Notes under the pieces: generated by a model
What the model saw: the letters and a program-made list of their open reading frames with translations, nothing else
Databases searched by the model: none
What the model was told of the DNA's origin: nothing
Assembly (NCBI GenBank): GCA_963669175.1
Contig: OY769902.1
Location: 3,840,001-3,904,000 of the forward strand
Source of the DNA: a bacterium
Lineage (GTDB): Bacteria; Electryoneota; Electryoneia; Electryoneales; Electryoneaceae
Length of the DNA stretch: 64,000 bases
Direction: 5' to 3'
Part shown: positions 16,078-56,568 of the stretch, in pieces
Layout: every line of letters begins with the position of its first letter
Position numbering within the stretch: the first letter of the stretch is position 1
Position numbers and translations under genes: made by a program

Positions 16078-19000
16078 TTACTTCAACAGGAGAAGCTTGC
16101 GTGTTTCCTGTAGCGGACCGGCCTGAAAATGGAGGAAGTACATACCTGAAGCGAGATTGGAGCCATCAAAGGCAACCTGATGGTGACCGGATGGGCGAAT
16201 TTCATCAATTACAGTCGCAACTTCACGTCCAAGAATATCATACAAAGTCGCATGTACCGGGCTGTTTTGTTTCAGTGAAAACGCAATCGTAGTCGTGGGA
16301 TTAAATGGATTTGGATATACACCGGAAAATTCCCATTCCACAGGTTGAGCTGCTACAGTTATTGCCTGCGTTACGGTATCCGGCGCCACGATAGTGAAAT
16401 AAGCCCAGTTATTATGCGCTGAACAGGCGTTATGTTTAAAATAGGTGTAGAATCGATAAACCCCCTGGTTCAACAGGCTTCCATCTACATTAAAGAGCAG
16501 GATTGAAGCAGTTCCCGGAATGACGACACCATTGGCCTGTTCTATCGTGAAGAATGGGAGATTATCACTTAGCGTCCAAACCTGCAATCCATCTTCCTCA
16601 CCACAATCAATGATGGTAGCGATAACCCACACCAGGGGATTCCATTGTCCAGAAATATCAATTCCTGAAGGATGAACATTCCCGGCCGGGGCAATGAAGC
16701 TGTAAATCTCAACCGCATCACCGTTTTCGGGATTCATCTTGACAATGCTGGTTTGATTGGATCCATTTGCCTGACAGATAAAATACAGGTTGAAGCCATC
16801 AGGATCTTCAGCAAACCAGGAAGCGCCGCGTGGGAAGAAATCCTGGGGATATTGAGCAATAATGCTGCCTTGCCGATTGACAGCATAAATATCAATACCA
16901 TAATCCCCCATCCAGAACAGATCAGAATCAGGGTCATAAGCCAGGTAACGCGCAGGATTAACTGGCGTTTCAAATGAATCAATCGCAGCAATACTGCCTA
17001 CCTGCCAATTGCCTTCTTCCAGCTCCCATTTCTTATCAATACGATACAACCAGCCACCGTCAACGCCATAAAGGAAATCGCCATCTGAAGTCAGCCCGTA
17101 TATGCCGGGATCACTACGCATATTCTCGCCGACAGGTTGGTCAAATGATCTGATAAACGCACCATAACGATCATACTGGTATAGCTGGTTCGGGACATTG
17201 ACATCCAGCCCGTTCGAACCGGTCACCCAGAAAAAACGTCCATCAAATACAAGTCCCCTGTTCCTTGTCTCCTGTTCCGAGAGCGAGAATGAATAAGCCC
17301 AATCCCAGGGCGAAGCCATGTCATCCAGATCATTATCATCTGTTGGCAACTCTTCAACTATTCTCTGGAATTGCATGCCCTCATTTTCACCCTGGAAGCG
17401 GATTCCGGCATCATATTCCAGTAACCCATCCCCGGGATTATACAGGTTTATGGACAAAGTATGATCTTCATCAGTATGAATCGTATCAATGACAACAGGC
17501 GGTGTGATCAATAAATCCGGAGAATAAAGTGAGATATTTACTTCAGTGGGTTCATCCATGTCCACCGCAATATTCTCAATGTATTTGCTGTTAAAGCAAT
17601 CATGGAAAACTTCAAGATCCACCCTGCCGGCCACAACTCTTTCAAGACAATAGTAGCCATTGGCATTGGTACAGGCCGACGCCTGACCGTCATCTGTGAC
17701 AACCAGGGCGCCCTCAATGGGCGCTTCATTCAACGTGCTGCTGATAGTTCCCTCAATACTACCCATTATTCTCATCACATTGGTGGTGAACAACACAGCC
17801 CTGCCATTTTCAACCGGCGGCATACCTGGCGTATATGAATTCCAGTAAGCAAGTTGCAAGCCATCATCCTGCGTCTGGTTTTCAATGCCTGTTGTGAAGT
17901 AATACACATCAGCGCCATTGCCTTGGGAATGATTCATCGTCCTGTACTGGAACAGGATATCGTTGTCATTCGTCCAGGTTGAATCCGGTTCGGGTTGCTG
18001 GTAAAGAATCAGTTCAAAGGTACACGGATTGTGCATTGCGGCATCGAGCACACGATACCACTCTACAATGATGCGACCGTTCCAGGCATCGTGGTAATAG
18101 AATATTCCGGATTCATCATCTGTTTTTCTTTCGTCCCAGTATGGCGCTATCATTGCAGATGGGCCTAATGGCGAAGGAATAGTCCAATTCCTTTGTAATG
18201 GCATATCCGCCTGGTTGCCCATTGCAACAAATCCATTTACAGCAATGGTCATTTCTGAATAGGTTTCTCCGTAATAGCGCACCGGGAAAGGAAGCTGGAT
18301 AACAACCGCAGTATCCTGATTATCAACAGTATCCTGAAGGCAAAGATTCTCGCCGAGGAATAAGTGCTCATGCAGGTCCGGGTTTATTTCAATCCAGGTG
18401 AAGTCAGGTGCGTATTCTTCGTAGTATAATGTATCGGTGTTGTCAAAAGCATAATGCCCATATAGATCAGGCCCAATCGGGTCATCAGCATCCACCTCAC
18501 CGATAGTGACATCGAAATACAATGTGTCAAGCATGTTGTTCGTGCTCAACGCAGTCAGATACAGGTTGCCCCTGTGTCCCTTAAATGCCTCAGGATGAAT
18601 GGAGATCTCGAACTGGCTGGTCATGGCTGTCTGACTTGGCGCCAGCGAAGTCATCACTCCGACGTTGTGCCCAATGCTGATAAATGGATCATCACTATGA
18701 AGCACAAGATTAACCGGATCCAACGCACTGCTGTTTCCAACATTTGCGACCAGACATTGTAAAATTCCAGTTTCCCCCGGGCTGATAACATTTCCTGAAT
18801 CGTTCAAAGCTTGCGCCTGAATCAACGCCAGTTTAAACGATTGAATTTCCAGCGGAATGATGTCAGTCGTTTCACTTAAATCCGCATTGATTGTAATCCG
18901 GTAATAGGCATTCCATCCATCCGGTGTTGCCGGGCTCAACTCAACAAGCACCACTCCATTGACAAACGCGCTTGAACGTGGTTGAATACTCTGCAGTGTT

Positions 19001-21177
19001 CCCGTACCCGAAATACCCGCTATATATGGATCATCCGTAGTAACCGAAATCTCAATCTGGTTCTGTTGCATGTCACTTCTGTTTTCCAGTTCAAATAACA
19101 GGCCGATCGTTTCACCTGCTTCTGCAATCCCATTGCTGTTTCCCGTGGTTCCATTCTGCCCATTATCTACTACAACAACATCTGCGAACACGATACTTTG
19201 TGCGACTTCCTGCACGGACACATCCATTTCATAGGGCAAATAGTGTTGTGCCGTAATAAACAACTTCAGTTCATTAGCCACACACCCATTCAAATCAAGC
19301 CAGCACTGACCACCTGCATTTGTCTGATTCTTCGAAACAACAAATACGCTGTCCCCGACTTCACTGGACATGGTTACCCAGGCATTTTCAACCGGTTCAC
19401 TTGACATGGGATCATAGAGGGTAACATGGTAACCATTCTGACCATGTGCAATTGTGCTGTCAGCAAACAGGAGCATGGTCTTGGGGCTTCCTGTCCATAG
19501 ATAGACAGTGGGATCCCCCATGATATTGCACCATGTCGCAAAATTATGGACCATTTCATCCTGATGCCCGCAAAAACTCGTATACATATTGAATTTCGCA
19601 CCAATGCCAGCCTGTCCAACCGAAGGATTTTTTTGCTGGAGAATGCTGAACCAGGCGCCTCCGGCCAACGCATTGTTAAACCTTGTATGAGTCGATCCTT
19701 CATGCATTCCCATTGCAGCTATGGCGCCACGAGGAACACTGGCTGTACCGGCTCGCATCCAGGCTTCACTGATACCATCCCCAAGCCAGTCACCCGTTCT
19801 GCATGTCAAATCAATCACCATAGGTGTCATGAAGTCATTCGCCAGTTCATTAATCTCTTCAGGATTTAACCCTGTATCCTGATATCCACGATGATGATAT
19901 AAACTGACGCCATTATTCAAGTGCATGATATCTTGATGATTAATCCAGAATTGTGTGCCTTGTGTATACCAAGCAGTATCTACCTGTGTATACCCTGCAC
20001 TCAGCATCAGATTTCGAACATACCTTCCGGTATATATTGTCGATATTCCCGAAGCGCTGGATGTTGCAGAAACAGACCCTCTCGTAAACCATTGCTGATT
20101 ATCAAGATAAGGATGCTTCTCGTAGGAAAGCACTTTATTGGTGTATATTACCAGTTCGCTGGCATTTTCAACACTGATCCGTCCTATAGCACAATCCAGC
20201 AGGAAATCGTCCCCGGCTAACAGTCCGTATGCATGGTCGCCAAAACCTGTGCCAGGTGGCACAACGAATGAACCTGTCGCATCACCAACTATCACGATGT
20301 AATCGAAGGGAACTTCCGCAGCATTCCACCGCGCCTGGAGTTCTGTTCGAATATCATTGCTGGTCCATGAAAGAACATCTTCTGGCGTTAAGAAAGCCAG
20401 ATCCCAGCCACGTTGCTTTTTCCAGGTTATCCAGTCTTCCATCAAGGTGAGGGCTTCATTGGTAGAAACCACCTGCACACTGCCGCGAACAACACGATAC
20501 TCGTCCAGCTCAGCGTCATCCCAGTCGGAAAGCTGACGATAAAACGGGAGGAAAGTCTCACTCAATGTCGTTGGCCAGGTAGTCAATTGATTGCGATCAT
20601 CCACCCCATAATAATGAACAGCTATAGTTATATCAGAATATATCCTGACCTCATGCCTGGCCGGATTTACCTGTACTGGTGAAAGGTGAAGTCCTGCAAC
20701 TCGAAAATCGTGCATGATCGCAGGCGATGTAGCGTCTACGATCTCTTCAGGCAACCATCTGTCGGGGCTATCTTCAGCGAAGGACAATGAGAAGTTGACT
20801 TCATTAAAAAAGCTTTCAGTTGTAATATCTGAGTAGGTAGTGTATTCGGCATCCAGAATGTCTATGCTGATTGCAGACTGTGGGGGAATCCGGAACAATC
20901 CTGAAACAATCGGAAGAACCGGTTCTTCCGGATAATCATCGGGGAGAATGTCCTGAAGGACAAACCTGGAAATCTCATCAGGGTATTCAGGCGATTCAAC
21001 AATATCAACAGCCGGCAGGCGAATAATACAGTTAAAACCATCCGAGGTTGTACAGACTTGTTCGAACTTTACCAGGGGGACAGATGTGGCGCAGGAATCA
21101 GGGGCTTGCGTAGCATACACTGGTGACAGAGCGATCACCAGCAGTATCTGTACGAATACCACACCCCTTCCACGCAT
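16078..21177 (-). CDS. Secreted C25 (gingipain-like, clan CD) peptidase-family protein: propeptide, C25 domain, Ig-like domains, propeller-like region, C-terminal T9SS-type sorting domain
   Basis: WKKQRG, YIVIVGD, DHAY, IGRIS, KVLSYE, DLTCRTG, SEAWMR, GAIA, NIMGDP; C-terminal YPNPFNP...GMYF...KLLLLK. Confidence 0.88.
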   Translation of the reverse strand: MRGRGVVFVQILLVIALSPVYATQAPDSCATSVPLVKFEQVCTTSDGFNCIIRLPAVDIVESPEYPDEISRFVLQDILPDDYPEEPVLPIVSGLFRIPPQSAISIDILDAEYTTYSDITTESFFNEVNFSLSFAEDSPDRWLPEEIVDATSPAIMHDFRVAGLHLSPVQVNPARHEVRIYSDITIAVHYYGVDDRNQLTTWPTTLSETFLPFYRQLSDWDDAELDEYRVVRGSVQVVSTNEALTLMEDWITWKKQRGWDLAFLTPEDVLSWTSNDIRTELQARWNAAEVPFDYIVIVGDATGSFVVPPGTGFGDHAYGLLAGDDFLLDCAIGRISVENASELVIYTNKVLSYEKHPYLDNQQWFTRGSVSATSSASGISTIYTGRYVRNLMLSAGYTQVDTAWYTQGTQFWINHQDIMHLNNGVSLYHHRGYQDTGLNPEEINELANDFMTPMVIDLTCRTGDWLGDGISEAWMRAGTASVPRGAIAAMGMHEGSTHTRFNNALAGGAWFSILQQKNPSVGQAGIGAKFNMYTSFCGHQDEMVHNFATWCNIMGDPTVYLWTGSPKTMLLFADSTIAHGQNGYHVTLYDPMSSEPVENAWVTMSSEVGDSVFVVSKNQTNAGGQCWLDLNGCVANELKLFITAQHYLPYEMDVSVQEVAQSIVFADVVVVDNGQNGTTGNSNGIAEAGETIGLLFELENRSDMQQNQIEISVTTDDPYIAGISGTGTLQSIQPRSSAFVNGVVLVELSPATPDGWNAYYRITINADLSETTDIIPLEIQSFKLALIQAQALNDSGNVISPGETGILQCLVANVGNSSALDPVNLVLHSDDPFISIGHNVGVMTSLAPSQTAMTSQFEISIHPEAFKGHRGNLYLTALSTNNMLDTLYFDVTIGEVDADDPIGPDLYGHYAFDNTDTLYYEEYAPDFTWIEINPDLHEHLFLGENLCLQDTVDNQDTAVVIQLPFPVRYYGETYSEMTIAVNGFVAMGNQADMPLQRNWTIPSPLGPSAMIAPYWDERKTDDESGIFYYHDAWNGRIIVEWYRVLDAAMHNPCTFELILYQQPEPDSTWTNDNDILFQYRTMNHSQGNGADVYYFTTGIENQTQDDGLQLAYWNSYTPGMPPVENGRAVLFTTNVMRIMGSIEGTISSTLNEAPIEGALVVTDDGQASACTNANGYYCLERVVAGRVDLEVFHDCFNSKYIENIAVDMDEPTEVNISLYSPDLLITPPVVIDTIHTDEDHTLSINLYNPGDGLLEYDAGIRFQGENEGMQFQRIVEELPTDDNDLDDMASPWDWAYSFSLSEQETRNRGLVFDGRFFWVTGSNGLDVNVPNQLYQYDRYGAFIRSFDQPVGENMRSDPGIYGLTSDGDFLYGVDGGWLYRIDKKWELEEGNWQVGSIAAIDSFETPVNPARYLAYDPDSDLFWMGDYGIDIYAVNRQGSIIAQYPQDFFPRGASWFAEDPDGFNLYFICQANGSNQTSIVKMNPENGDAVEIYSFIAPAGNVHPSGIDISGQWNPLVWVIATIIDCGEEDGLQVWTLSDNLPFFTIEQANGVVIPGTASILLFNVDGSLLNQGVYRFYTYFKHNACSAHNNWAYFTIVAPDTVTQAITVAAQPVEWEFSGVYPNPFNPTTTIAFSLKQNSPVHATLYDILGREVATVIDEIRPSGHHQVAFDGSNLASGMYFLHFQAGPLQETRKLLLLK

Positions 21178-21360
21178 GGAACTCTCCGAATAGAGTCATC
21201 TACAGATATTTCGTTATGTCATGCAGGCTTTATAGTCATCCACGATAAGCTGATTATCCTTCAAGTACATCAAGGTAAGAAGTCAAGTACAGCTATGTAT
21301 CAATAAGAAGAAGGAAAATGAAACATTTTCGGAGGTATCACTGCCTCTCCGAGCCGTATC

Positions 21361-21855
21361 CTACAACGAGTCCAACGCAGCTTTCAACTGATCGTAACAC
21401 TCCCACATATCTTGACTTATCACTTTCGTCTCCCCCAGAACCGGCATAAAATTAGTATCCCCTTTCCAGCGGGGTACAATATGCAGGTGGATATGCTCCT
21501 CCAACCCTGCCCCGGCAATGGTTCCCATGTTCCAACCGAGATTAAACCCATGCGGATGCAATGTTCTCTCCATCGCTTCCATGCACACCTGCGTCAATTC
21601 ACCGGTAGCTTCCCATTCATACGGTTCCATCTGACGTAAATCATGCAAGTGCCTGTTGGGGCAAACCATCAGGTGACCATTGGAATACGGGTACCGATTC
21701 ATGATTACAAAAGCATTTTCACGACGAATCAGAATGAGGTTCTCACGGTCGTTTTCAATCCCCTCCTTCAGGGCATCACAAAGAAAACAATCCGTAACCC
21801 CATTTGCGGATTCTTTGATCCATTTGAACCGCCAGGGCGCGTACATCTTTTCCAT
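21361..21855 (-). CDS. HIT-family protein (Ap4A hydrolase/phosphorylase type)
   Basis: APWR, CFLC, NRYPYSNGH, HIHLHIVPRW.GDTNFM. Confidence 0.92.
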   Translation of the reverse strand: MEKMYAPWRFKWIKESANGVTDCFLCDALKEGIENDRENLILIRRENAFVIMNRYPYSNGHLMVCPNRHLHDLRQMEPYEWEATGELTQVCMEAMERTLHPHGFNLGWNMGTIAGAGLEEHIHLHIVPRWKGDTNFMPVLGETKVISQDMWECYDQLKAALDSL

Positions 21856-21872
21856 CTTCTTCCCCGTTCACG

Positions 21873-21902
21873 AAAAAAGGCGGCGGCCAAATTGCCGCCG
21901 CC
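21873..21902 (-). terminator. Terminator after the EF-G paralogue
   Basis: GGCGGCGGC/GCCGCCGCC stem with T6 on the minus strand. Confidence 0.8.
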
Positions 21903-21925
21903 CAGATATGGCTTACAAAACTTTA

Positions 21926-31110: not shown

Positions 31111-34100
31111 CTATTTCACCAGGACCATCCGTTTCAGGTCTGTGAACGCTCCGGCTTCGATACGGTAGAAATACATACCACTGGCCAGGTTACGTGCATC
31201 GAAGGAAACCGTATGATACCCGGCTTCCAAGCGTCCGTTCGCCAGTTGCATCACTTCCTGCCCCATCACGTTATAAACCATGAGGTTGACATTCTGCGGA
31301 TCTACCAGGTCAAACCTGATCTGGGTAACCGGGTTGAACGGGTTGGGATAGTTCTGATGCAGAGCGTATGTCGTGGGCATGTCAGCCGTTTCGTCATCAA
31401 TATCATCAACGAATACCACAACCAGATCAACAATCGGCGGTGCACACCAGTAGGGACCGGTCAGTACAATTTCCGCCATCAGTTCATCACCTACCACGAA
31501 GCCCAACTCCTCCGCTTTACCACCTCGAACGTCAACGGTAACCGAGATATCTTGGACTTCTTCCGGTTCCAGTACCCCCTCAGAAGGCTCGAGGTAGAAC
31601 CAGGACATCGGCGCTACGGTACCTTCCCAGATATCGACCCAATCAGTTTCCCCCTGCATGACGGTTGTCACATCGTAACGCGCGCTGTGGTAACCACGTG
31701 TAATCTCCATACCACCAGCCGTACCGACGCCTTCTTCATACAACACCTGGTAGTTGGTGTTCCAGGTGAACTCGGAAGTGCTGAACCTGTGCAACACACC
31801 TCCTTCGCCAGTCTCGTCTGTTGCCAATGCCCACAGGCAATAGCCTTCCTGATCACTCGGGTTGTATGCAAGTCCCATGATGGGGCCGACTTCCGGGTCA
31901 ATCATCATGCCACTCTGGGCGCCGGTATCCAGATCGTACAGCACAAAGCCATCCTGACCATCCGAGGCATACAAATACCCGTCATCGTAATCGATTGCGA
32001 GTGCAACCGGCCACATCCCCAGGTTGCATACCCACTCGTACTCGGTCAGATCCGGTGCAAAACGGAAGACATCGCCGTCAGAGTTCCCGCCGTAAAGCAT
32101 ACCGTCCTTCACATCGTAGGCGAGATCCAGAAGTCCCATCCCGTCAGCGCTGATCATTTCACCCGGATAGGTCCGTGCGGCAATCGGATTGCCTGCATGA
32201 CTGAACTGATACAGGAAATTATCTCCGATATCAGAGTTGGGAATGTAGACTGCACTGACATAGATACCGTCTTCCAGGGTAACAGCGCCATAGATGCCTG
32301 GATTCATTGTCAACGACTGTGCATCAAAGGTCATCAGGTGATCGAACAGATCATCCAGTTCGCCCATCGACTGAATCGGACCGGAGCCTTCTTTGGCAAA
32401 AGCGATACCGTTGCTGAGAATCGACTGGTTGGAAGAACCGGTTGTTTTCCGCATCATACGGCCACTGCGCTGCTGTTGTGGACCGGCATTGATGACTTTC
32501 CCGCCTGTTTCCTCTTCAGCCAACGTGTGTGGTCCATCAACCACCCAGATGTAGCTGTACCAGTCCAATGGTCCTGTCCCCACGCTGCTGATTTGGATGG
32601 AAGTTGTACCAATAGAATCACCCACCAGCTCGTTGAAGTTGACAAAAACTTCAAGCGCCGTTGTGTTCAAGTCGCCATCCGGGTATACCAACGCTCGTCC
32701 GGACGCGTTTGTGAAGTTCACTTCGATGGTATCCCTTTCCAGCAATTCCGTATCATCTGCGCGTGACGGCCAGTAACAGGGATACTCGGTTATGATGTTC
32801 AGCGTATCATCTGCCGGAGAATTAAACAGGAAGTAGTAGCCTGATGCATCCGTATACGCTTCATAGGCCGGGTATTCTTCCACATACACCCGCACACCTT
32901 CCACTGGCTCATCGTCGGAATCCATGACAAATCCATAGATGCTCCCGCGCGGAGTACCTTCTACTCCCCAAAGTTCAAGTTCATCAATAGCAACACCGTA
33001 ATAGCTGTTCCCGCTACCGTCACTACCGAACCTGAACCTGATGAGGAATGAATCGGCATCTGCCACATAGTTGGTCAAGTCGTAGGTTACCTGTGCCCAG
33101 GCGTTGGATGAAGCGGACCATCCTGGTTCAGCATCCAATCCGCTGACACCACCCTCGTAGTTATAGCCATCGATCGGGGAAACGACAGTCCAGGTTCCGC
33201 CATCGTTGGTGGAGACCTGCAGGTTGTACCCATCATAGTAGGACTCAAACTGATACCAGTGATAGTACATCAGCAGGACTGCGCCTTCAGCGGGTATCCA
33301 GGCATGCTCGCTTTCCATGATAGCATCATCGTTGTTGTTGTAGATCCCATCCATATACGTAGCGTAGCAGTAGTCGCCGTCATGCGCTTCACCCGGTCCG
33401 GCAGTAGGAGTGCCCAATGTCCAGATATCGCCATCTTCAAAGGGGATATCCTGTTCCGGTTGCACTCCGGGTTCAAAGCTGCTCCAATAGGGCGCGCTGC
33501 CTATCTGAATCAGGGTCTCACCTTCGTCACCGGTTCCGATGCCAGCAGCGGAATAGTTAGGCACTTCGTCAAACGCTTCCACCTTATAGGAATAGTAACC
33601 GGCCGTTAAGACCTGATCGTTGTATGACCATGCTTCCGGATCATCAAGCGTGGCAATCAACTCATTATCACGATAGATGTTAAATCCAGCCAGATCGACC
33701 AGGTCCGTTCCGTCTTCGTTTTCTGTTGGAACTTCCCAGGTTATAACCGACGTCAACGCATTGTGATCAATGTCGCTGACCGAGACATCGGACGGTGCAT
33801 CCGGCGGCATCCAGAACCAGGTTTCCACATCATCTGTCGGATCAGATTCAATGATCTCACCTTCGACAGTATTCTGGGCAGTGACATAGTAGTAGACGTG
33901 GTTGCCTTCTTCGCCTTCTTCGTCACTTTCCCAGTCGCTACCGTATACCAACAGGTAAGGAATCTGGTTTTCCGTAACTGGATCGTCGTTGTACAGTTCG
34001 AATTCTTCACCGTCCGTTGAAACGTAGAAGAAATAACCGTCGAACTCGTCGAGTTCGTTGTTGGCAATAAGCCCTTCACGAACGAATACACCTGGACGAA

Positions 34101-37100
34101 GTGGATTGGGACCATCACAGAAACCGTGTTTATCCGAACTTCCGTGAACAGCCGCATTCAACGGGATAATCGAATCACGATTCGGCACGGATTCCCTTGA
34201 TGGAAGTGTTGGATGTTCGGCCATGAACATGTCATCCTGGAATCCCAGCACCCAGGCCCGTACCATGGGATCACCATTCACATTATGGTTCGTGGCTGTA
34301 TCCCAACCGTTTGTGGTGTAGTACAAATAGCTCTGCGGCTCATTCAGCGAGGCGTCTACACAAATCGCTTCTGATGTATTCTCGGTTGGGGGGACATAGA
34401 AACCGAGCCAGAATACATCCTCTGCCGTCACGCCCGGTTCGAAAATAGCCCACGGTTCATCTGCAGAGGTGGTGATTTCTCCAGAAGTATAGAGCAGCTC
34501 ACCCGGCAGATCGTCGTCCCCATTCGCCCAGCACATGGCAATGATCGGGTCATGCACACCATCCGGCCAGGGAGCGGGTGTCCATTGTTCACTCTCTGAT
34601 GTCAGGCGAATTTCACCTTGTACTACTGTCGCTGTGCCATCAAGGAAGAACGGAACCCCCCAATTGTAGTTTTCACCGTTGGTGTTCAAGTATGTCGCAT
34701 TCCCCGGTGTACCGTCATCATATGTCAGGTAGATCAGATCGCCGACAAACCCGGGAGGCATGACTGTTACATAAACACCGTCATCATGGTACTTGTTATC
34801 ACTTACAAGGACAGGCGGTGTTTCTGGCGACACCCACTCCATCTCCACATTCACCGTAAGCGTATAGACCTCTTCACCGAATTCAAGATCTGTGTGATCG
34901 GTGTTCGGATTGTACTGGTTCGCGATAACTTCCATATCGTAGGTCAAATCCCGATCCAGGATGCGCACAAATTCGTACCAGCCGTTTTCATCCGTTGAAG
35001 TGGAGTATCTCCCATCATCCGAATCCGTCAAAGTGACCTGGGCATTTTCTACGATATTGTCATCAACGTCCGTGATCGTTCCCTCAATGCTGCCCATGGG
35101 CACCAACTCGAGATCCACATCCAGGAAGTATTCAGCCTCAGCAAAGGTCAAGTCTGTCTCTTCTCCGGAAGCATACCCCTCTGCGGAAACAGTGATGGAG
35201 AATGTTTCATCAAGGTTGAATTCGCGTACAAATTCGTAGTAACCATCTTCATCAGTCGTAGTTGTCCAGGTGTCGCCTTCATCGCTTTCAGCGACTACTG
35301 TTGCACCTTCAACAGGATCGTCATCGGAATAATCCAGGATAGAACCGGAGATGGTTCCAGCCGGGAGAAGCGACACGTCAATCGAGATGTCGAAACCTTC
35401 AACAATCGTAATATCTTCTACTGTTCTTGAAGTGTATCCGATCGCCTCGTAGTCAACATCCCACGGACCATCCGCACTGTCCACGAGTACGGAATACCAG
35501 CCGTTCTCATCCGATTCTGCATACCATGTATCACCTTCAGAATCCGTCGCCACGACTTCGCAACCGACAACAGGATCACCGGTGATGGAGTCGCTTACGA
35601 CGCCATTGATACCGGCCCAACTCCAGTCTGGTGGCTGGAATGTAATCGCGAACTCATTTTCAAGTGACTGGTAAGGATAGGTGTACGCAACAGTACCATC
35701 CGAGTTTTCGATACCAACACCGCCACGGATGTAGTAGCTCCAGTCATCTGCCTCTTCATACTGGAATTTTATCGCTCCTGTTTCGCAGTCCAGTACCGCT
35801 TCATAGGAGAAACGGTAGTCCGTGTTACCGCTATAGGGACGGAGGTAGAATTGGATGATAACCTGATCGTTTTCTGTATCCTCCAGGTACCAGATACCTA
35901 TACCATCTCCAGCAGCGCCACCGTGATAATCACCGTTCAAGGGAAGTAAAACTGTGTTTGGCGCGGAAGTCGCAGGAATGTTTACAGTTATGGAAGTGGA
36001 CGTAAAGTCTGTAAAACTGAACCAGCCGTTGGTGCAGGCGCCAAAGGAATCGTACTCATCGCCGAAATAAGGGAAAGTCAGTTCGTCCAATGAAACCTCA
36101 CCGCTGTTCGCATCATCACCTGCATCAACAGCGACAGAACCTTCACCACCATTGTTCGGGTTAATCTCTATCCAGTCATATTGCGATTCTGAGACAATGT
36201 ATGTCGAGGCGACCGGGAGTGGACGACCGTATAGAGGTTCACAGAACACGAGATAATCGTCACCATATCCATAGTCCGCAGCTACTGCCGCACCATACAT
36301 GGTGCCGTTCGCCAGACCGCTGACAGTATAACTCTCGCCATTGATAACATTGTCAAGGATGTCTTCCATGCCATTCGGATAGATCAATTTCACACGATAT
36401 CCCTGGAAATCCATCAGCTCATCCAGCTCCTGCCCGTTTCCCATGGCTCGAATCATATCATCATGGATGTTCTGGAGCATGTGGATACGTTTTTCCACCA
36501 ATGGCAGTTTGGCGATTTCCTGCGGTATGTTGCGGCTCCGAATATCATCGATAGATAGATACAGGTTTTCTATCTCCTCGGCAATCAGCAACACGTCTTC
36601 TTCAGGATGGTTGTCTGGCGCCCCCCAGACAAGGTCAAGTTCAGTATCGCCTATACTCATCGAGAAAGCGGTTGGTGGAAGAACTTCATACACCTCAAAT
36701 TCCAACGGCATTTCATCTTCGCTTACCTCAACGGCAGGCATAAATTTATCATGATAGCCATCCGATCCTGCAGGATCTCCGCTTATAACAAAGGTGTAAT
36801 AACCAACAGCCTGCGAGCCCAGGTTAAAACCGCCATTCTCATCGGTAACGCCACTGACGTTCAGCACTGGAATGGATACGGTTATTCCCTCAACAGGATT
36901 ATCAGGATTATCTGCCGAATAGACTGTCCCGGAGATCTCAGTTTCAATAGCATTGTTGTAATCAAGGATGAAATTGACAACTGTGGTATCGTCAGAAGCA
37001 ATACTTACGCTGTCCTCTGAGGCCAGAAAGTATCCAGGCGCCATTGCTTTTACGATATAATCCATCTCGAAAAGGGTTTCTTCAAGGATATAATCGCCGT

Positions 37101-37989
37101 TTTCATCAGTGTAGACATTTGCTACAAACGACGTGTCTTCCTGAATCCATACTGAAATCTCAGTCCCGGCAACCGGTTCATCATCAATGTCTATCACCGT
37201 TCCCATCAAGGTTCCCCAACGGGGATGATAGATCACGTAGTCAAGAGTATTCGGAAGCAGGTAAGCGCCGACATAATCGTGGCTCCACATGTGCGCATAG
37301 GTCATCGTAGTTGCAATGACATGACCATGACCATATTCGTATTCAATCAACGTGGGCAAAGTGCCATCTGCATTCCGGGAAATGATGACATTGGCATCAT
37401 CCGGATACCCGGTCAGGTAACCGTGGTTACAACTGCTTCCTTCAGGGTTGGGTTCATCCAGGACAATCGGGTGATCTTCATCCTGGATATAGTTGACTGT
37501 GCTGTTATCCGAGTAGATATGGCCGGTGCCATCCCACAATTCCCATCCGGGAGTATGTGTGTTGGTTCCACCGTGATATTCCAGCCAACCACCGTCTTCG
37601 ACATACTCCTGCAGAACACCTATTGCAGCATTCAGGTTAGTATAGAATGTTGCATCCTGGTTGCCTGAAACAACAACAGCGACATATTCCGAAAAATCCG
37701 TATTCTGTACATTGGCGGAATTAATGATGTCATACGTTACATCTTCCATGACATCAAGCACTCCGGTTATATCCCCCCACCAGTTGTCAATGTCCTGAAT
37801 GAGCGCCACATTCAACTCATCCAGTTCGCTGTATCTTGGCGCAACAGGAATCACAGGCATCCCGGTCGTCCAGCTTGGGAGTACTGCCTCCTGATCTGCC
37901 ACCACGCCTTCAAGCTCAGCCTGTGCCAGCACACTGCATAGCGACACAAGCATCAGCCCGACAACCAACAACCAAGTCAATCGTCTCAT
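31111..37989 (-). CDS. 2292-aa secreted acidic multidomain protein (CarboxypepD_reg/FN3-like Ig repeats, beta-sandwich and propeller-like modules) with T9SS-type C-terminal domain
   Basis: Signal peptide; repeated G.I.G.V.D...PVEGA.V...TDENG.Y; HWYQFESYYDG; C-terminal NYPNPFNP...GMYFY...KRMVLVK. Confidence 0.85.
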   Translation of the reverse strand: MRRLTWLLVVGLMLVSLCSVLAQAELEGVVADQEAVLPSWTTGMPVIPVAPRYSELDELNVALIQDIDNWWGDITGVLDVMEDVTYDIINSANVQNTDFSEYVAVVVSGNQDATFYTNLNAAIGVLQEYVEDGGWLEYHGGTNTHTPGWELWDGTGHIYSDNSTVNYIQDEDHPIVLDEPNPEGSSCNHGYLTGYPDDANVIISRNADGTLPTLIEYEYGHGHVIATTMTYAHMWSHDYVGAYLLPNTLDYVIYHPRWGTLMGTVIDIDDEPVAGTEISVWIQEDTSFVANVYTDENGDYILEETLFEMDYIVKAMAPGYFLASEDSVSIASDDTTVVNFILDYNNAIETEISGTVYSADNPDNPVEGITVSIPVLNVSGVTDENGGFNLGSQAVGYYTFVISGDPAGSDGYHDKFMPAVEVSEDEMPLEFEVYEVLPPTAFSMSIGDTELDLVWGAPDNHPEEDVLLIAEEIENLYLSIDDIRSRNIPQEIAKLPLVEKRIHMLQNIHDDMIRAMGNGQELDELMDFQGYRVKLIYPNGMEDILDNVINGESYTVSGLANGTMYGAAVAADYGYGDDYLVFCEPLYGRPLPVASTYIVSESQYDWIEINPNNGGEGSVAVDAGDDANSGEVSLDELTFPYFGDEYDSFGACTNGWFSFTDFTSTSITVNIPATSAPNTVLLPLNGDYHGGAAGDGIGIWYLEDTENDQVIIQFYLRPYSGNTDYRFSYEAVLDCETGAIKFQYEEADDWSYYIRGGVGIENSDGTVAYTYPYQSLENEFAITFQPPDWSWAGINGVVSDSITGDPVVGCEVVATDSEGDTWYAESDENGWYSVLVDSADGPWDVDYEAIGYTSRTVEDITIVEGFDISIDVSLLPAGTISGSILDYSDDDPVEGATVVAESDEGDTWTTTTDEDGYYEFVREFNLDETFSITVSAEGYASGEETDLTFAEAEYFLDVDLELVPMGSIEGTITDVDDNIVENAQVTLTDSDDGRYSTSTDENGWYEFVRILDRDLTYDMEVIANQYNPNTDHTDLEFGEEVYTLTVNVEMEWVSPETPPVLVSDNKYHDDGVYVTVMPPGFVGDLIYLTYDDGTPGNATYLNTNGENYNWGVPFFLDGTATVVQGEIRLTSESEQWTPAPWPDGVHDPIIAMCWANGDDDLPGELLYTSGEITTSADEPWAIFEPGVTAEDVFWLGFYVPPTENTSEAICVDASLNEPQSYLYYTTNGWDTATNHNVNGDPMVRAWVLGFQDDMFMAEHPTLPSRESVPNRDSIIPLNAAVHGSSDKHGFCDGPNPLRPGVFVREGLIANNELDEFDGYFFYVSTDGEEFELYNDDPVTENQIPYLLVYGSDWESDEEGEEGNHVYYYVTAQNTVEGEIIESDPTDDVETWFWMPPDAPSDVSVSDIDHNALTSVITWEVPTENEDGTDLVDLAGFNIYRDNELIATLDDPEAWSYNDQVLTAGYYSYKVEAFDEVPNYSAAGIGTGDEGETLIQIGSAPYWSSFEPGVQPEQDIPFEDGDIWTLGTPTAGPGEAHDGDYCYATYMDGIYNNNDDAIMESEHAWIPAEGAVLLMYYHWYQFESYYDGYNLQVSTNDGGTWTVVSPIDGYNYEGGVSGLDAEPGWSASSNAWAQVTYDLTNYVADADSFLIRFRFGSDGSGNSYYGVAIDELELWGVEGTPRGSIYGFVMDSDDEPVEGVRVYVEEYPAYEAYTDASGYYFLFNSPADDTLNIITEYPCYWPSRADDTELLERDTIEVNFTNASGRALVYPDGDLNTTALEVFVNFNELVGDSIGTTSIQISSVGTGPLDWYSYIWVVDGPHTLAEEETGGKVINAGPQQQRSGRMMRKTTGSSNQSILSNGIAFAKEGSGPIQSMGELDDLFDHLMTFDAQSLTMNPGIYGAVTLEDGIYVSAVYIPNSDIGDNFLYQFSHAGNPIAARTYPGEMISADGMGLLDLAYDVKDGMLYGGNSDGDVFRFAPDLTEYEWVCNLGMWPVALAIDYDDGYLYASDGQDGFVLYDLDTGAQSGMMIDPEVGPIMGLAYNPSDQEGYCLWALATDETGEGGVLHRFSTSEFTWNTNYQVLYEEGVGTAGGMEITRGYHSARYDVTTVMQGETDWVDIWEGTVAPMSWFYLEPSEGVLEPEEVQDISVTVDVRGGKAEELGFVVGDELMAEIVLTGPYWCAPPIVDLVVVFVDDIDDETADMPTTYALHQNYPNPFNPVTQIRFDLVDPQNVNLMVYNVMGQEVMQLANGRLEAGYHTVSFDARNLASGMYFYRIEAGAFTDLKRMVLVK

Positions 37990-46763: not shown

Positions 46764-46876
46764 GAGACCGTGCAGTTCTCAAGAGGTAATTGCATATTAC
46801 AGAATCATGGACATATATTCCATGATTCTGTTTTTTTAGGACAATCTTAACTGGCACGCGAAGGAGGTGAGTGCGA

Positions 46877-47083: not shown

Positions 47084-47128
47084 TCAGCGCTTTTGCCGAG
47101 TAACACTGAAGCAAGTTCGAGACGCACG

Positions 47129-48451: not shown

Positions 48452-48457
48452 AGTAGC

Positions 48458-49372: not shown

Positions 49373-49428
49373 ATTAAGAATTAAGAATTAAAAATTAAAA
49401 ATTAAAAATTAAAAAAATAAGAATATAA

Positions 49429-50891
49429 CTCGGTTTTGCTCATTTTAGCGGATCAAGCGGCTTTGTGAATAAGGAATTTAAGGATATTGCTTTTCTTTTT
49501 TAAGAATCCGCGTGGCTGCTTGCATTCGGGAAAAATCGCCTGCATCCACAATTCAGCACGCAATGCCTGATGCACGTCTGAGAAACTGGGTTCCAGTTTT
49601 GTGTACCACTCTGTTTGCGCAACAGCTTTCTGCTCTGGCTGCTGACTATACCAAACAACCATCAGACTGAACAAGCCAAACAGCAGGGGCACTGTTCTTT
49701 GAATCGATTTTTTTGACCAGTTTTCTGTCGTTTCGATACGCAGATGTTTCCGTGACTCTTCAAACGTGGTTTCCAACGCCCATCGTCGTACATATGAGCT
49801 GACAACCTGGGCCGGGGTTAAGTCTGTTTTGGATGTAGATAAGACAATGTCCTTGTTTTTGCCGTCGGGATCACGCGCCACCACCCAGCGTATCAGGACA
49901 ACATCTTCCCCGGAACGATACCAGCAGCCAACACCGGAAAGCAGCAACAGGTCTTTTGTCTTGTTCCCATACCAGAGGCAAGACGCTTTTTCCCAGGCAG
50001 CATCCGGCTTTTTCGCCTCTTGTCCCGGTGCGGGCAAACGGTCACCGACTTTGCGCGGACGTCCACGTTTCCCGTTCGGTGGAGGCGGCGGATCATGCAG
50101 CACCGTATCCATACGCGAATGCCCGATGATAGCAAGACGGTTCTCTTTCGCCACGAAACGGTGAAGTTCGTGGGCATTCAACGTACCGTCGGCAAGAATC
50201 AGAAAACGGCGGTCCGGAAACCATCGAAGCAGCAGACGCACCCCGAGAATGATCAGGTGTACAGGACTGCGGTACTTCGATTCCGGAACACGCTTTTTGG
50301 CGATCTCCGGAAACACGAATACAGGAAGCGCCCAGATCTGCGAACGATAACGGGTGCGCAAACCAATCGAAATCACCATCCATTGAAGACCGCGAGCATA
50401 AACGACTTTTGTCCCTGCTTTGCCCGAACGGACGGGATCACGGTGAACGGATATCTGGTAAACATGCTTTCCCCAACGACGGATCAGGGTATCATCCACG
50501 ATCAGAAGGATCGGATCACGTTCGGCAATCTGATCAAGTATCAAAGAGCAGAGAATCTTTGCCAGTTTCAGGGCGGACCAGTTGGCAGACGAAAGAAAAT
50601 GGTGATAACAAGACCAACTCTTTTCAACCGGTCCGGGAAATACACGTAATAACTGACAGACTGTCTGACGACCGAAATTCAATACAGCGCCGATAGCCAA
50701 CAGTACAAAATTCTCATAAACAGGTTTCCGAAACACCGGACGAAAACTTGCAAGTAACTCAAAAAATGACGATGTTATGGCAGGCATGGTTATCTCCTTT
50801 ACAACCCTGAAAGACTTGGACATCTTCTTGGTTGTAAAATGAACCATGCCTTTTACTTTTTGCAAGACCTGAGTAATTCAACAAAACCGAG
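49429..50891 (-). mobile_element. IS701-type insertion sequence, 1463 bp, terminal IRs CTCGGTTTTG, flanking direct repeat AATATAA
   Basis: IRs 10/10 and 14/17 identical; AATATAA at 49422-49428 and 50892-50898. Confidence 0.85.
49453..50787 (-). CDS. IS701-family DDE transposase
   Basis: YHHFLSSANW, IVDDT, LADG, Y.RRW.LE..F.E.R.HL; SD AAGGAG before ATG 50787. Confidence 0.9.
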   Translation of the reverse strand: MPAITSSFFELLASFRPVFRKPVYENFVLLAIGAVLNFGRQTVCQLLRVFPGPVEKSWSCYHHFLSSANWSALKLAKILCSLILDQIAERDPILLIVDDTLIRRWGKHVYQISVHRDPVRSGKAGTKVVYARGLQWMVISIGLRTRYRSQIWALPVFVFPEIAKKRVPESKYRSPVHLIILGVRLLLRWFPDRRFLILADGTLNAHELHRFVAKENRLAIIGHSRMDTVLHDPPPPPNGKRGRPRKVGDRLPAPGQEAKKPDAAWEKASCLWYGNKTKDLLLLSGVGCWYRSGEDVVLIRWVVARDPDGKNKDIVLSTSKTDLTPAQVVSSYVRRWALETTFEESRKHLRIETTENWSKKSIQRTVPLLFGLFSLMVVWYSQQPEQKAVAQTEWYTKLEPSFSDVHQALRAELWMQAIFPECKQPRGFLKKKSNILKFLIHKAA

Positions 50892-51163
50892 AATATAAAA
50901 GAATCGTTAATTAGGAATCAGAAATGACAAGTTAGAAATCGACTAATAATTTATGATTTATGTTTTAGTCAAATAGAGCAGTACAACCGCCCGAGTGCAA
51001 GCACTCCGGGCCACGCGAATGTATCAGGCTTTCAGGCTTATCGGTTTCGCGGCAAACATAGGACAATTCTCCCGGCCAGGCATACGCCGGAAAACGTACA
51101 GGTGGCCGGGCTACTTAATACCTTCTTTACTTTTTGTTACTTTTTTTACCTTTTTCACTTCTT

Positions 51164-53764: not shown

Positions 53765-53889
53765 AAGTAGGGATGGAAAGCGTTAACATCAATAAAAATC
53801 TTTTCACTCATTCGGCGAATCAGTTGAGTTGTTAAAATTCTGTAAGTACATTCGAATCCGTTTAGTGCTTACCGGGGATGGAGGCAAAG

Positions 53890-56568
53890 ATGACACGGAC
53901 AAGAGCAACGCACTTCGCGCTCTTCTTGTTACTACTGGTTACAGGATACTCTGTTTCATTTGCAACACCGCATGTTTCTCCTGAAGAACTTGACCAGCAA
54001 TTACAGGCTCACCCGCGCTCCTTTTCACCTGAACATACTCCGCTGTTCTACACAAACGAACTCAACGAACTGGATGAATACGAATACGTCCTGCGCATGG
54101 TTGAAGCGCTGGATTTCATGGCTTCTCTCCAGGTAACTGACCAGGGCGCTGATTTCGGCGGCATGATGGAGGGTGAACAGGATCTGGATATCATCCAGAC
54201 GGACAACACGCAGGAGGCGTTGCGGGACTGGTCTTATTTCGGACGTTTATCCGGTGACACAACTCGTTATCGTGATAATATTGATGCGGCCTGGGAATAC
54301 ATCCTGAATTTCCCGGCTTATGATGAAGAGGGTGATGTTAATCCGTACTACTATCGTGTACACAACTGCGGCTGGGGTTTGATGGCAACCATGGAATACA
54401 TGGAGACCTATGGTGACTCTACCTACCTTTGGTATGGCGATAGTTGCGCCAGTTATATCGACACCTACCGTCTCCCCATCAACGGCAACGCCATCAATCC
54501 CCTGGCTGCCGGTTATGGCGCCGGTACTCTGTATATCTACGGTGTCTGGCGTCAAAACCAGGATTGGATTGACGCAGCCCAGGAAATCGCTACGGATGTA
54601 CAAGGCTGGATCGAGGCCGACCCTTCGCGTCTGCACAACTATGAAACCTGGGCCATGTCCGCCGGAACAGCCATGTGGGGTGTGGTGACAGCCCTGTATC
54701 GTGATGATCATGAAGCTGGCGCTGAATGGATTCCCCAGTTTGTGGATTCTCTGGATGTCTATTCCGGCGTGGGAAACTGGAACAACTCCTGGACTGTCTG
54801 GTATGGTCACGCCTGGACTGCTATCCACAGCATTCTGGATGATCCTCAGAGTCTCGCCAACGCGCATGAAGTCGTCGATTTCCTGCTGGACCAGGATGAG
54901 CCGGACCGTGATGGCGGTATCCCGGCAACGGAAGGGATTCATCAAAACGATCAGTCCTGGACAACGGCTTACATGGTCTGGTACACCATGGAACCGATCA
55001 TTGCGGAAACCAACCCGCAGTATGATGCGACCCTGCTGAGTCTCGACAACCATGATCCAGACTGGCCCTTGTTCCAGGACGATACTTTCAACTTCGACCT
55101 GACCATCGGCAATTCAGGCCTGTATCCCCTGGACAGCATCATCGTTCAAATGCAGTACGGTCCGTTTACATTCGCAGATACTGTTGATCTTGAGTTTGGG
55201 CAATATGGCACAGTTCACCTTGAACCGGGCTGGATGCCAGACGAAACAAGTGATGTTGAGCTCGAATTTACTCTGATCCATCCTGACGACGGCAATCCGG
55301 CAAACAACACGCTGAATGTCACTTACAATGTGCTTCCCGTTGAAAGAGTAGCAGGAATGATCTATGACCCGGACTCGACCGATGGAGTACTGAGTCGGCT
55401 TGACGCTTACCTGTACTGGAATGAATCGGATTCGCTGTACAGAAGTATCGAAAACGATACGACCGGTGAATTTTCCGGTATGCTGGGCAGGGGTACATAC
55501 AGGCTGGAATTTGTTCCCCTCGCCCCCCCATATACTCCACGGGTTATTGACAGCCTGGAGATCAATGAAGGTGGCGTTGATGATATCGAAATCGAATTGA
55601 CACGTGCACCGCTGTTACTGGTTCTGGAAGATGGTAATGGTGATTATGAACGCTATTATACGGAAGTCCTTGATTCGCTTGACATTGACACCTATATCTG
55701 GAAATCCTACGAATATGGTATCCCGGATGATACGATTAAATATTTCCATTCCGTAATCTGGTCCTGTGGTGACCTGGATGACCATATCCTTGCCATGAGT
55801 AACTGGAGTGAAATCAATTCATTCCTTCAGGAAGGCGGATCTATCCTGCTCACAGGACAGAACATCCAGGATAAGTGGCATGGATTCTCAATCCTGCGCA
55901 ACGGCTTCCGTGTCGATGAAGGCACACTGGGCATTACCGGCGACCCAAGCCTCCGGATTCTCCATGGAGTGGATGGTGATACGGTCGTTTATAATGACAG
56001 CCTGATCATCTTCGGTATCAATGGCGGGGCAAACAACCAGGTAGCTCCTGATGAAGCCGTACCGGCAGATAACGAAGCCATGCCTATCCTGTACTATGGG
56101 CATTCTGATTCTGTCGCTGCTGTCGCTTTCCAACATCCTGAGATTGGATATCATACCGTCTTTTGCGGGTTTGGTGTGGAGGCTATCAATAGTCAACCGC
56201 CGGATGGCTACATCACTCGTGTCGATTTCCTGCGCCGGGTTCTGGCATGGTTTGAATTGATTGACGATACCGTGAATGTTCAAGAGCCAGGGTCTACTCT
56301 TCTCCCCACAGAACTGGCGCTGAAAACATGGCCCAACCCGTTTAACCATGTGCTTCGCCTTGAAGTCGCGCTTCCCATGAAAAGTGAAGTGGAGATCAAA
56401 GTGTTTGATATCCTCGGGCGTGAAGTGGCGGCATGGGAACCGAGAACCATGTCAACCGGATTGCATCGATTTACCTGGAACGCTACAAACCTGGCCAGCG
56501 GAACCTATTTTGTCCGGATTCGCACACAAAACCAGCAACTGGTCAAGAAGGCATTGCTGCTGAAATAG
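53890..56568 (+). CDS. Secreted protein with predicted alpha-helical (toroid-like) N-terminal domain, Ig-like modules and T9SS-type C-terminal domain
   Basis: Signal peptide; Trp/Tyr-rich helical region; WPNPFN...GTYFVR...KKALLLK. Confidence 0.8.
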   Translation: MTRTRATHFALFLLLLVTGYSVSFATPHVSPEELDQQLQAHPRSFSPEHTPLFYTNELNELDEYEYVLRMVEALDFMASLQVTDQGADFGGMMEGEQDLDIIQTDNTQEALRDWSYFGRLSGDTTRYRDNIDAAWEYILNFPAYDEEGDVNPYYYRVHNCGWGLMATMEYMETYGDSTYLWYGDSCASYIDTYRLPINGNAINPLAAGYGAGTLYIYGVWRQNQDWIDAAQEIATDVQGWIEADPSRLHNYETWAMSAGTAMWGVVTALYRDDHEAGAEWIPQFVDSLDVYSGVGNWNNSWTVWYGHAWTAIHSILDDPQSLANAHEVVDFLLDQDEPDRDGGIPATEGIHQNDQSWTTAYMVWYTMEPIIAETNPQYDATLLSLDNHDPDWPLFQDDTFNFDLTIGNSGLYPLDSIIVQMQYGPFTFADTVDLEFGQYGTVHLEPGWMPDETSDVELEFTLIHPDDGNPANNTLNVTYNVLPVERVAGMIYDPDSTDGVLSRLDAYLYWNESDSLYRSIENDTTGEFSGMLGRGTYRLEFVPLAPPYTPRVIDSLEINEGGVDDIEIELTRAPLLLVLEDGNGDYERYYTEVLDSLDIDTYIWKSYEYGIPDDTIKYFHSVIWSCGDLDDHILAMSNWSEINSFLQEGGSILLTGQNIQDKWHGFSILRNGFRVDEGTLGITGDPSLRILHGVDGDTVVYNDSLIIFGINGGANNQVAPDEAVPADNEAMPILYYGHSDSVAAVAFQHPEIGYHTVFCGFGVEAINSQPPDGYITRVDFLRRVLAWFELIDDTVNVQEPGSTLLPTELALKTWPNPFNHVLRLEVALPMKSEVEIKVFDILGREVAAWEPRTMSTGLHRFTWNATNLASGTYFVRIRTQNQQLVKKALLLK

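Follow-up and report, generated by a model that had tools for sequence, protein, structure and literature searches.

A strict ELDE tetrapeptide on type IX secretion cargo of an Electryoneota lineage: a candidate processing or recognition motif

Do three exported proteins encoded close together in a genome of the family Electryoneaceae (GenBank assembly GCA_963669175.1) share a short acidic word because something reads it? The stretch in question (hereafter the window) is 64,000 nucleotides long, covers positions 3,840,001–3,904,000 of the single 5.45-Mb contig OY769902.1 (G+C 50%) and encodes three proteins that serve as cargo for a type IX secretion system (T9SS): a 1699-residue protein related to peptidase family C25 (P0001), a 2292-residue multidomain protein (P0002) and an 896-residue protein (P0003). 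To our knowledge, work on type IX secretion has been confined almost entirely to Bacteroidota, where maturation after export is known for few proteases; gingipains mature by cuts at Arg or Lys. A preliminary description of the window had proposed that the motif [ED]LD[ED] marks Asp-directed, caspase-like maturation of these proteins, possibly carried out by P0001. All seven motif copies listed there lie at the coordinates given for them, with at least one in each of the three proteins (an eighth, DLDD at residue 632 of P0003, had been missed), and each protein ends in a type A C-terminal sorting domain (CTD; Por_Secre_tail/TIGR04183). We propose that the exact word ELDE is best read as a motif, specific to this lineage, by which type IX cargo is processed or recognised, and apparently under selection at the protein level.

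The motif was counted across the genome in 4,704 open reading frames (ORFs) from a crude caller of our own, which cover 91% of the sequence. A hidden Markov model of the CTD, seeded with the three window CTDs and iterated to convergence (328, 334, 335 and 335 matches), placed a C-terminal sorting domain no more than 10 residues from the C-terminus in 332 ORFs, 304 of which were marked as carrying a signal peptide by a crude hydrophobic-window rule rather than a dedicated predictor. The comparison set consisted of 3,394 non-CTD ORFs of at least 100 amino acids (aa), and expected motif counts were computed protein by protein from each protein's own composition. CTD-bearing ORFs make up about 7% of the ORF set and include giants of 5,177, 5,237, 10,354 and 11,593 aa.

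The [ED]LD[ED] motif occurs eight times in the three window proteins (0.84 expected), 235 times in the 332 CTD proteins (47.4 expected) and 162 times in the non-CTD ORFs (131.2 expected). Nearly all of this signal is exact ELDE, found 158 times in the CTD proteins against 8.0 expected (observed/expected ratio (O/E) 19.8; 86 proteins carry it) and 60 times in the other ORFs against 36.3 expected. The near variants ELDD (26 versus 11.2), DLDE (22 versus 11.2) and DLDD (29 versus 17.0) are only about twofold over-represented in CTD proteins, and at an O/E of 1.7 neither of the two DLDD sites in the window is individually significant. The enrichment in CTD-bearing over other proteins that the preliminary description anticipated was thus borne out for exact ELDE, while its degenerate forms, about twofold enriched, proved too loose a definition.

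This strictness extends to every alternative word considered. With the CTD itself removed, ELDE has an O/E of 20.0, the best single substitutions reach 5.7 (ELDW), 3.6 (EEDE), 2.9 (ELDS), 2.2 (ELDD) and 1.9 (DLDE), and the eleven other orderings of E, L, D and E are counted 4–36 times each. Among all 4-mers ELDE ranks ninth by z-score and has the widest spread over proteins (86 versus ≤55 for the other enriched words, which come from repeat domains). Non-CTD ORFs with and without a crude signal peptide have O/E values of 1.7 and 1.6, respectively, so the excess is specific to type IX cargo and is not a property of exported proteins in general. Acidic composition (Asp+Glu 13–18% and Lys 0.7–1.2% in the three window proteins) does not explain it.

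The 158 sites are encoded by 27 distinct 12-mers that vary at every synonymous position, which argues that selection acts on the protein; codon choice within the motif is shifted to CTG and GAG relative to the same proteins. Flanking residues show preferences only: D (0.25), N (0.18), G (0.15) and S (0.12) at position −1, and L (0.34), F (0.12) and Y (0.09) at position +1. Single-linkage clustering of 80 residues on each side (BLASTP, E<1e-3) returned 32 clusters when either side could link two sites, 36 from the downstream side and 63 from the upstream side, with 54 sites in the largest. Counted once per family, the contexts still number four times the total expected ELDE count, and at least 32 of them appear to be unrelated in sequence.

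Where, then, does the word fall? Its density peaks 45–90 residues from the ORF start (34 sites, 1.9–2.9 per 1000 aa), compared with 0.1–0.9 per 1000 aa in the other bins to residue 1000. The N-terminal leaders that precede it differ between families, and ELDE lies ~3 to ~55 residues past the signal peptide; other copies lie deep within proteins. Several places recur: the junction between C25 propeptide and catalytic domain ('DWDD-ELDE-YxLYRG'), a loop within the C25 propeptide, the start of FN3-like modules ('ELDE-FxGYxVY'), a linker ahead of a C-terminal propeller-like region ('RGPx5-6[GN]-ELDE-LWD'), and peptidases of the subtilisin type (S8) and papain type (C1). In the S8 protein ELDE stands at residue 166 and the Pfam domain starts at residue 188; in the C1 protein it stands at residue 52, and position 14 of the family profile falls on residue 63. 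Both sites would therefore lie at expected mature N-termini, for S8 with a presumed residue-level correspondence to subtilisin BPN'. The propeller-linker class also has a conserved Arg/Gly-Gly-Pro ('RGP') 8–10 residues upstream of ELDE, as at window positions 32362-32400 (minus strand). Tandem copies occur as ELDELDELDE in 4 of the 86 proteins and as ELDELDE doublets in three more.

The window illustrates most of these places. P0001 is composed, in order, of a signal peptide, a C25 propeptide, a C25-like domain, a CarboxypepD_reg domain, a propeller-like region and the CTD (Pfam: Propeptide_C25 86-189, Peptidase_C25 237-558 (1.5e-35), CarboxypepD_reg 1140-1217 and Por_Secre_tail 1620-1695). 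Its membership of the C25 family is clear from PF01364 (123.6 bits, cut-off 23) and PF08126 (38.1 bits, cut-off 22). The features below are given with their counterparts in the gingipain RgpB of Porphyromonas gingivalis where one exists.

16078..21177, minus strand: gene of P0001, 1699-aa type IX cargo protein (ORF and translation)
20758..20832, minus strand: propeptide loop, residues 116-140, equivalent of the RgpB Arg126 inhibitory loop (profile alignment to 4ief_A)
20500..20511, minus strand: ELDE, residues 223-226, at the junction of C25 propeptide and catalytic-type domain, matching RgpB Arg229/Tyr230 within about 3 residues (motif scan)
20038..20040, minus strand: Thr380, aligned with RgpB Asp163 on the floor of the S1 pocket (alignments to 4ief_B and 1cvr_A)
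19888..19890, minus strand: Arg430, at the strand end where clan CD has its catalytic His, R-G standing for H-G (alignment; model strand 426-430)
19801..19803, minus strand: Cys459, aligned with RgpB catalytic Cys244 (alignment)
17320..17331, minus strand: DLDD at residue 1283, a degenerate copy before the C-terminal propeller-like region, where paralogues have ELDE
16093..16320, minus strand: type A CTD, the T9SS sorting domain (PF18962, TIGR04183)

P0002 contains six CarboxypepD_reg stretches, a MAM-like domain and a Por_Secre_tail domain (2214-2288) by Pfam, and its AlphaFold2 (AF2) model spans residues 1-620 with a mean predicted local distance difference test score (pLDDT) of 82.7. P0003 has no Pfam or NCBIfam family match beyond those of CTD type, and a single paralogue (908 aa) in the genome.

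31111..37989, minus strand: gene of P0002, 2292-aa multidomain cargo protein (ORF and Pfam)
37816..37827, minus strand: ELDE, residues 55-58, where a disordered N-terminal leader ends (AF2: pLDDT <50 at 25-56, first strand at 59-64)
36418..36429, minus strand: ELDE, residues 521-524, in coil (block pLDDT 63), with a helical hairpin (helices within 464-517) before it and a beta-domain strand (530-536) after it (AF2)
34045..34056, minus strand: ELDE at residue 1312, start of an FN3-like module (ELDE-FxGYxxY), in a cluster of 7 paralogous sites
32350..32361, minus strand: ELDD at residue 1877, between a Gln/Ser/Gly/Arg-rich linker and the C-terminal propeller-like region, in a 16-site cluster whose paralogues have ELDE
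31126..31350, minus strand: type A CTD of P0002 (Por_Secre_tail, TIGR04183)
53878..56568, plus strand: gene of P0003, 896-aa cargo protein (ORF)
54067..54078, plus strand: ELDE, residues 64-67 of P0003, following a leader rich in Pro (in the same context, the paralogue carries ELDE at residue 84)
55771..55782, plus strand: DLDD at residue 632 of P0003, probably a chance occurrence (DLDD O/E 1.7)
56329..56553, plus strand: type A CTD of P0003 (CTD-family matches)

Two of the degenerate sites that the preliminary description had included, DLDD 1283 and ELDD 1877, thus occupy positions where paralogues carry the exact word, though the DLDD site is not significant by itself. The linker of P0002 is unusually high in Gln, Ser, Arg and Lys for so Lys-poor a protein. 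The proposal that each motif follows a linker and precedes a folded segment fits the models at residues 55 and 521 of P0002, whereas residue 223 of P0001 lies in a confidently predicted helix and about 28 sites in the genome lie in interior loops; genome-wide, the downstream flank is slightly more hydrophobic (p 0.02–0.09, 32 clusters), which lends the proposal weak support.

The site in P0001 can be mapped on the gingipains. A profile of 41 C25-like family members matches both the RgpB prodomain (4ief_A, E 1.3e-20) and the catalytic domain (4ief_B, 3.8e-44). The AF2 model of P0001 (residues 1-643, pLDDT 87) superimposes on 4ief_B with Z 41.8 (root-mean-square deviation 1.9, 386 residues), on 1cvr with Z 41.3 and on Kgp (4rbm) with Z 38.8, and so predicts a gingipain catalytic-domain fold. 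Model residues 232..643 correspond to RgpB 239..648, which puts RgpB Tyr230, the mature N-terminus, close to residue 223, the initial Glu of ELDE; the observation in the preliminary description that this site stands at the RgpB maturation position, with no Arg, is therefore correct. PMC4357240 describes Arg126 and Arg229 as the two autoprocessing sites of proRgpB. The first of these also has a counterpart: 'VISRAE' of the RgpB prodomain aligns with acidic loop columns where paralogues have ELDE, the loop Asp lies +7 to +9 from a conserved Ala anchor (RgpB Arg126 at +8), and E[LI]D[EDQ] is found there in 12 of the 41 members. The loop of P0001 itself has no ELDE, although its paralogues do, and its pLDDT falls below 50 at residues 124-130. 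Judged by these alignments, both RgpB autoprocessing positions appear to carry Asp in this C25-like family.

The pocket that would receive such residues is changed as well. RgpB Arg126 occupies the S1 pocket, where it forms a salt bridge to Asp163 and a hydrogen bond to the catalytic His (PMC4357240). At the Asp163 position 22 of the 41 family members have Lys and 13 have Thr, including Thr380 of P0001, which does not keep the acidic pocket residue for Arg specificity. The loop motif occurs in 10 of 22 Lys-type and 2 of 13 Thr-type members, a suggestive difference that is confounded by relatedness. The catalytic Cys is kept in 18 of the 20 paralogues of this genome, Cys459 of P0001 among them; the His region of P0001 reads 'LYHHRGY', and the place of the His falls on Arg430 or on Tyr432, depending on which of two HMMER alignments is used. 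P0001 is best described as a C25 homologue that lacks one defining catalytic feature and is at most a putative peptidase. Seven of the 20 C25-like paralogues stand in tandem outside the window (G000:C1:651071-681682), as adjacent ORFs of ~1,660–1,700 aa each, one of which is apparently split into 874 aa without and 746 aa with the CTD.

The genome also encodes two components of the type IX machinery, SprA (TIGR04189, 799 bits, cut-off 200) and a true PorU (NF033707, 688.8 bits, cut-off 420) with His and Cys intact in 'NYMGHGN' and 'ATCSWG'. P0001 is not PorU (NF033707, 18.6 bits against the cut-off of 420). The PorU protein sequence contains no ELDE, and neither does the junction ahead of the CTD, which follows 'VV[ED][ED]...LPxE[FY]AL..NYPNPFNP' (for example, window 31351-31400, minus strand). 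Within that junction 'VV[ED][ED]' lies ~12–15 residues upstream, and 84% of 325 proteins have Pro at −6. The PorU gene is directly downstream of the gene of the 5,177-aa cargo protein (G000:C1:1023382-1043157), which has nine ELDE sites that include a triple tandem ELDELDELDE.

Assignment of P0001 to the caspase family C14 was considered and rejected: Pfam gives C25, and caspase structures match its model at Z of about 9–10 only. The label 'caspase-like' used in the preliminary description is therefore apt at the level of the fold and wrong at the level of the family. A WD40 + C14 protein of 1,114 aa is encoded just upstream, and on the same strand, of the gene of a 5,237-aa ELDE-bearing cargo protein (G000:C1:2631069-2650688).

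Conservation of the word was followed in other genomes. The nearest named relative among the fetched records is a metagenome-assembled genome (MAG) of Candidatus Electryonea clarkiae, followed by Cloacimonadota at ~30% identity, and the 80 fetched C25-like homologues divide into 36 Electryonea-like and 44 Cloacimonadota-like sequences. The junction ELD is present in 36/36 Electryonea-like homologues, all from other MAGs, with E (26), D (5), Q (2), R (2) or G (1) as the fourth residue, and in 0/44 Cloacimonadota-like homologues. The latter have Arg at the junction in ~40/44 cases, mostly as Tyr-Arg (read from printed columns), and their propeptide loop is often acidic ('QQGxxL[DE][ES]PK'). These Cloacimonadota-like loci (L051-L094) also have Arg-Gly for His-Gly.

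Sites in other families were compared as well. At site 55 of P0002, ELD[ED] is kept in 13/13 aligned rows from 7 genomes; at site 521, exact ELDE is kept in 6/21 rows and the others are degenerate (ELDD, EIDD, GLDD, LDEL). For the S8 clade 30 loci from 12 genomes were fetched; in 17 of them exact ELDE stands 2–3 residues before a conserved Trp, and the sequence upstream of it is fully variable.

Raw DNA counts of GARCTNGAYGAR, with the pattern read backwards as control, gave forward/backward values of 215/32 in G000, 166/66 in G001, 150/28 in G003, 99/16 in G009 and 84/32 in G006. Most of the 74 other genomes in the phylum gave ratios near 1:1; three Cloacimonadales genomes gave 63/82, 70/71 and 58/100, and the genome holding the Electryonea clarkiae locus gave 150/28. 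Such counts cannot prove that the motif is absent from small genomes: they are flat in G005 and G011, yet orthologous S8 and P0002-type sites keep ELDE in both. In 400 kb of G009, which belongs to another genus, ELDE occurs 6 times against 0.72 expected in 29 CTD proteins, at sites of the same kinds, and once against 2.74 expected in 265 other ORFs. On these data the ELDE word appears to be limited to the family that holds Candidatus Electryonea.

Taken together, the strictness of the word, its restriction to type IX cargo, its conservation amid variable flanks and its lineage limit point to some reader of ELDE. The more specific view that ELDE marks sites of proteolytic maturation has, in our judgement, about even chances; we infer both that the motif is cut and at which bond, with its Asp as the likely P1 residue. 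It best explains the placement of ELDE, which marks the mature ends in three peptidase families and both autoprocessing sites of gingipain, and is also found where leaders end and between modules. N-terminal leaders and propeptides would be removed at ELDE, and the modules of multidomain cargo would be separated or nicked there after export. A natural candidate for the reader is the expanded C25-like family, in which the pocket Asp is replaced by Lys or Thr; if it cuts, it would do so by a non-canonical mechanism, given that it has no canonical His.

Several results weigh against this. The canonical H-G is found in 0/20 paralogues of this genome, P0001 included, and in 0/80 fetched homologues, R-G taking its place in 17/20 and 76/80, respectively. 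Because the canonical His is missing, a C25-like cutter is doubtful, and so is the proposal that P0001 is the processing protease; PorU, by comparison, keeps G-H-G. No C13 or C11 family match was found in the genome, and its two C14 caspase-like proteins, which keep His and Cys, have no CTD and presumably carry acidic residues where metacaspases bind a basic P1. The junction ELDE of P0001 is a short helix (residues 221-226, pLDDT about 88–91) and not a loose loop, and polarity over the 12 residues upstream of ELDE does not exceed that at random positions in these proteins (0.57 versus 0.56). Some 28 of the 158 sites, spread over 9 proteins, are found in the interior loop of a repeated '..LPDDTTIYWRVRAxD' domain (defined by regular expressions of our own), where cleavage would nick the fold. 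Since peptidases of family S8 as a rule cut off their own propeptide, they need no common site for an enzyme acting in trans, and 11/30 S8 loci have neither ELDE nor ELDS (the latter present in 2/30) while 10 of these 11 still have the CTD.

Some of the same results would be expected if ELDE were a docking peptide that is bound and not cut, an unlikely but serious alternative. Here C25-like domains with a basic pocket and no His would act as pseudo-gingipains that hold the acidic ELD peptide in the former S1 cleft and tie cargo together on the cell surface; giant multi-ELDE proteins would serve as scaffolds, and the ELDE of the C25 propeptide and junction would be self-occupying, autoinhibitory ligands. 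The canonical His is missing in every member examined although the fold is intact (Z 41.8 to RgpB), and both contacts of RgpB Arg126, Asp163 and His (PMC4357240), are replaced by basic or neutral residues. The structured helix at the C25 junction suits a bound ligand, as do the 28 sites on interior repeat-domain loops of giants of up to 11,593 aa, several per protein, and tandem copies of the motif would provide multivalency. For Cloacimonadota, PMC8542988 infers a complex resembling the cellulosome, in which S8 and C25 peptidases carry dockerins. However, the Cys is kept in 18/20 paralogues and 44/44 Cloacimonadota-like homologues, which suggests chemistry over mere binding; Arg also replaces His in Cloacimonadota homologues with a junction Arg, and hence provides no specific counter-charge for ELD; and docking leaves unexplained the exact placement of ELDE at propeptide/mature boundaries of three peptidase families. 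A complex prediction for a Lys-type C25 catalytic-type domain with the ELDE leader of P0002 (score 0.02, mark 0.32) is neutral on binding. Carried further, the idea makes ELDE an address code, whereby C25-like receptors clamp the ELDE peptides that roughly a quarter of the type IX secretome displays on its leaders, linkers and loops, and assemble proteases and adhesins on giant multi-ELDE scaffolds, with the protease fold as the 'cohesin' of a cellulosome-like proteolysome; we consider this combined picture unlikely.

It is improbable that ELDE serves structure or folding and is read by nothing; it might then cap a helix or strand, form a metal-binding turn or act as a solubility tag where domains start, and would persist through convergent selection or travel with shuffled modules. 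The motif is part of a confident helix in the C25 model, is ~1.6-fold over-represented even in non-cargo proteins and has many of its sites in paralogous families (up to 54 in one cluster). Nevertheless, the motif is strict at all four positions and turns up in at least 32 contexts unrelated to one another, whose flanks show no extended conservation, two of the three modelled sites fall in low-confidence coil outside the fold, and restriction to CTD cargo of one family is hard to square with general structural utility.

Very improbable is a signal at the DNA level, in which a 12-nucleotide recombination or microhomology site serves in-frame shuffling of modules and the peptide is a by-product. 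Sites often flank modules that recur in different architectures, and the shift to CTG and GAG codons would agree with it, but the 27 different 12-mers vary at every synonymous position and orthologous sites keep the peptide across genera while their flanks diverge; synonymous sites seem, for the most part, no better conserved within the motif than beside it. Chance, acidic composition (D+E 13–18%, K about 1%) or an artefact of the crude ORF caller is negligible given an O/E of 19.8 against each protein's own composition, permuted words that are not enriched, replication in a second genus and a raw DNA pattern that exceeds its backwards control by 215 to 32 in G000.

The three cargo genes of the window are not themselves a locus-level system, because housekeeping genes surround them: EF-G, an ETF subunit, GlnE, an MscS-type channel, a lytic transglycosylase and a DDE transposase are encoded among and around them. 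The transposase is the following ORF:

49453-50865, minus strand: DDE_5 superfamily transposase, 470 aa, between housekeeping genes and the gene of the 896-aa cargo protein

A literature search found no paper that combines 'ELDE' with 'type IX secretion', and in the main text of the paper describing Electryoneota the terms T9SS, gingipain, C25 and propeptide are absent. The present result is a strict tetrapeptide that 86 of the 332 cargo proteins carry in a lineage of uncultured protein degraders, and that falls on the cut positions of the gingipain zymogen with the charge reversed. If ELDE is a cleavage site, it would define a maturation step of new specificity across the secretome, make the mature ends of hundreds of proteins predictable and point to an Asp/Glu-directed protease or to a clan CD enzyme with no canonical His. 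If it is instead a docking code, it would represent a new way to organise a bacterial surface. Either way, one word and one domain provide a simple handle for searches.

Known systems resemble this one to different extents. The Bacteroidetes Q-rule, by which the N-terminal residue after signal peptidase I cleavage is Gln (PMC5837995), is likewise a lineage-wide sequence rule for the N-termini of exported proteins, but concerns one residue at the signal-peptide cleavage site, whereas ELDE lies farther in and also deep inside proteins. The cohesin-dockerin system inferred for Cloacimonadota (PMC8542988) likewise involves secreted S8 and C25 peptidases with a short shared module and a possible tie to a scaffold; it differs in that a dockerin is a folded module of ~70 aa, against four residues for ELDE, for which there is only a putative receptor. 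PorU, a C25 peptidase that acts as C-terminal signal peptidase and sortase, is the sole peptidase known to handle all CTD cargo, yet it removes the CTD, and the CTD junction here has no ELDE.

Caspases (C14, clan CD) are Asp-specific, prefer Glu at P3 and bind the P1 Asp through two Arg and a Gln. They share a distant clan CD fold with P0001 (caspase-7 Z about 9–10), and x-E-L-D fits a P3 Glu and a P1 Asp; P0001, in contrast, is a C25 protein with no His, and the Arg/Gln/Arg pocket was not identified in it. The RgpA, Kgp and HagA polyproteins, which are cut at Arg or Lys into catalytic and adhesin domains, are similar in that they, too, are large type IX cargo of many domains whose modules are separated by a short recurring site. 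They differ from the present set in its acidic specificity (if it is cut), its strict tetrapeptide, its distribution over 86 proteins of many families and its ~28 sites within a repeat domain.

The closest parallel is the activation of the RgpB zymogen, a C25 protein of Porphyromonas gingivalis processed sequentially at Arg126 and Arg229. Prodomain, catalytic fold and CTD are common to both, and the same two places, the inhibitory loop and the junction, hold ELDE here. Arg is replaced by the Asp within ELDE, pocket Asp163 by Lys or Thr, and the catalytic His by R-G, so autoprocessing in this family is putative; in addition, ELDE recurs in dozens of unrelated cargo proteins. Relative to gingipain maturation, what appears to be new is the Asp word, the changed pocket, the loss of the His and, most importantly, that a quarter of the secretome carries the word.

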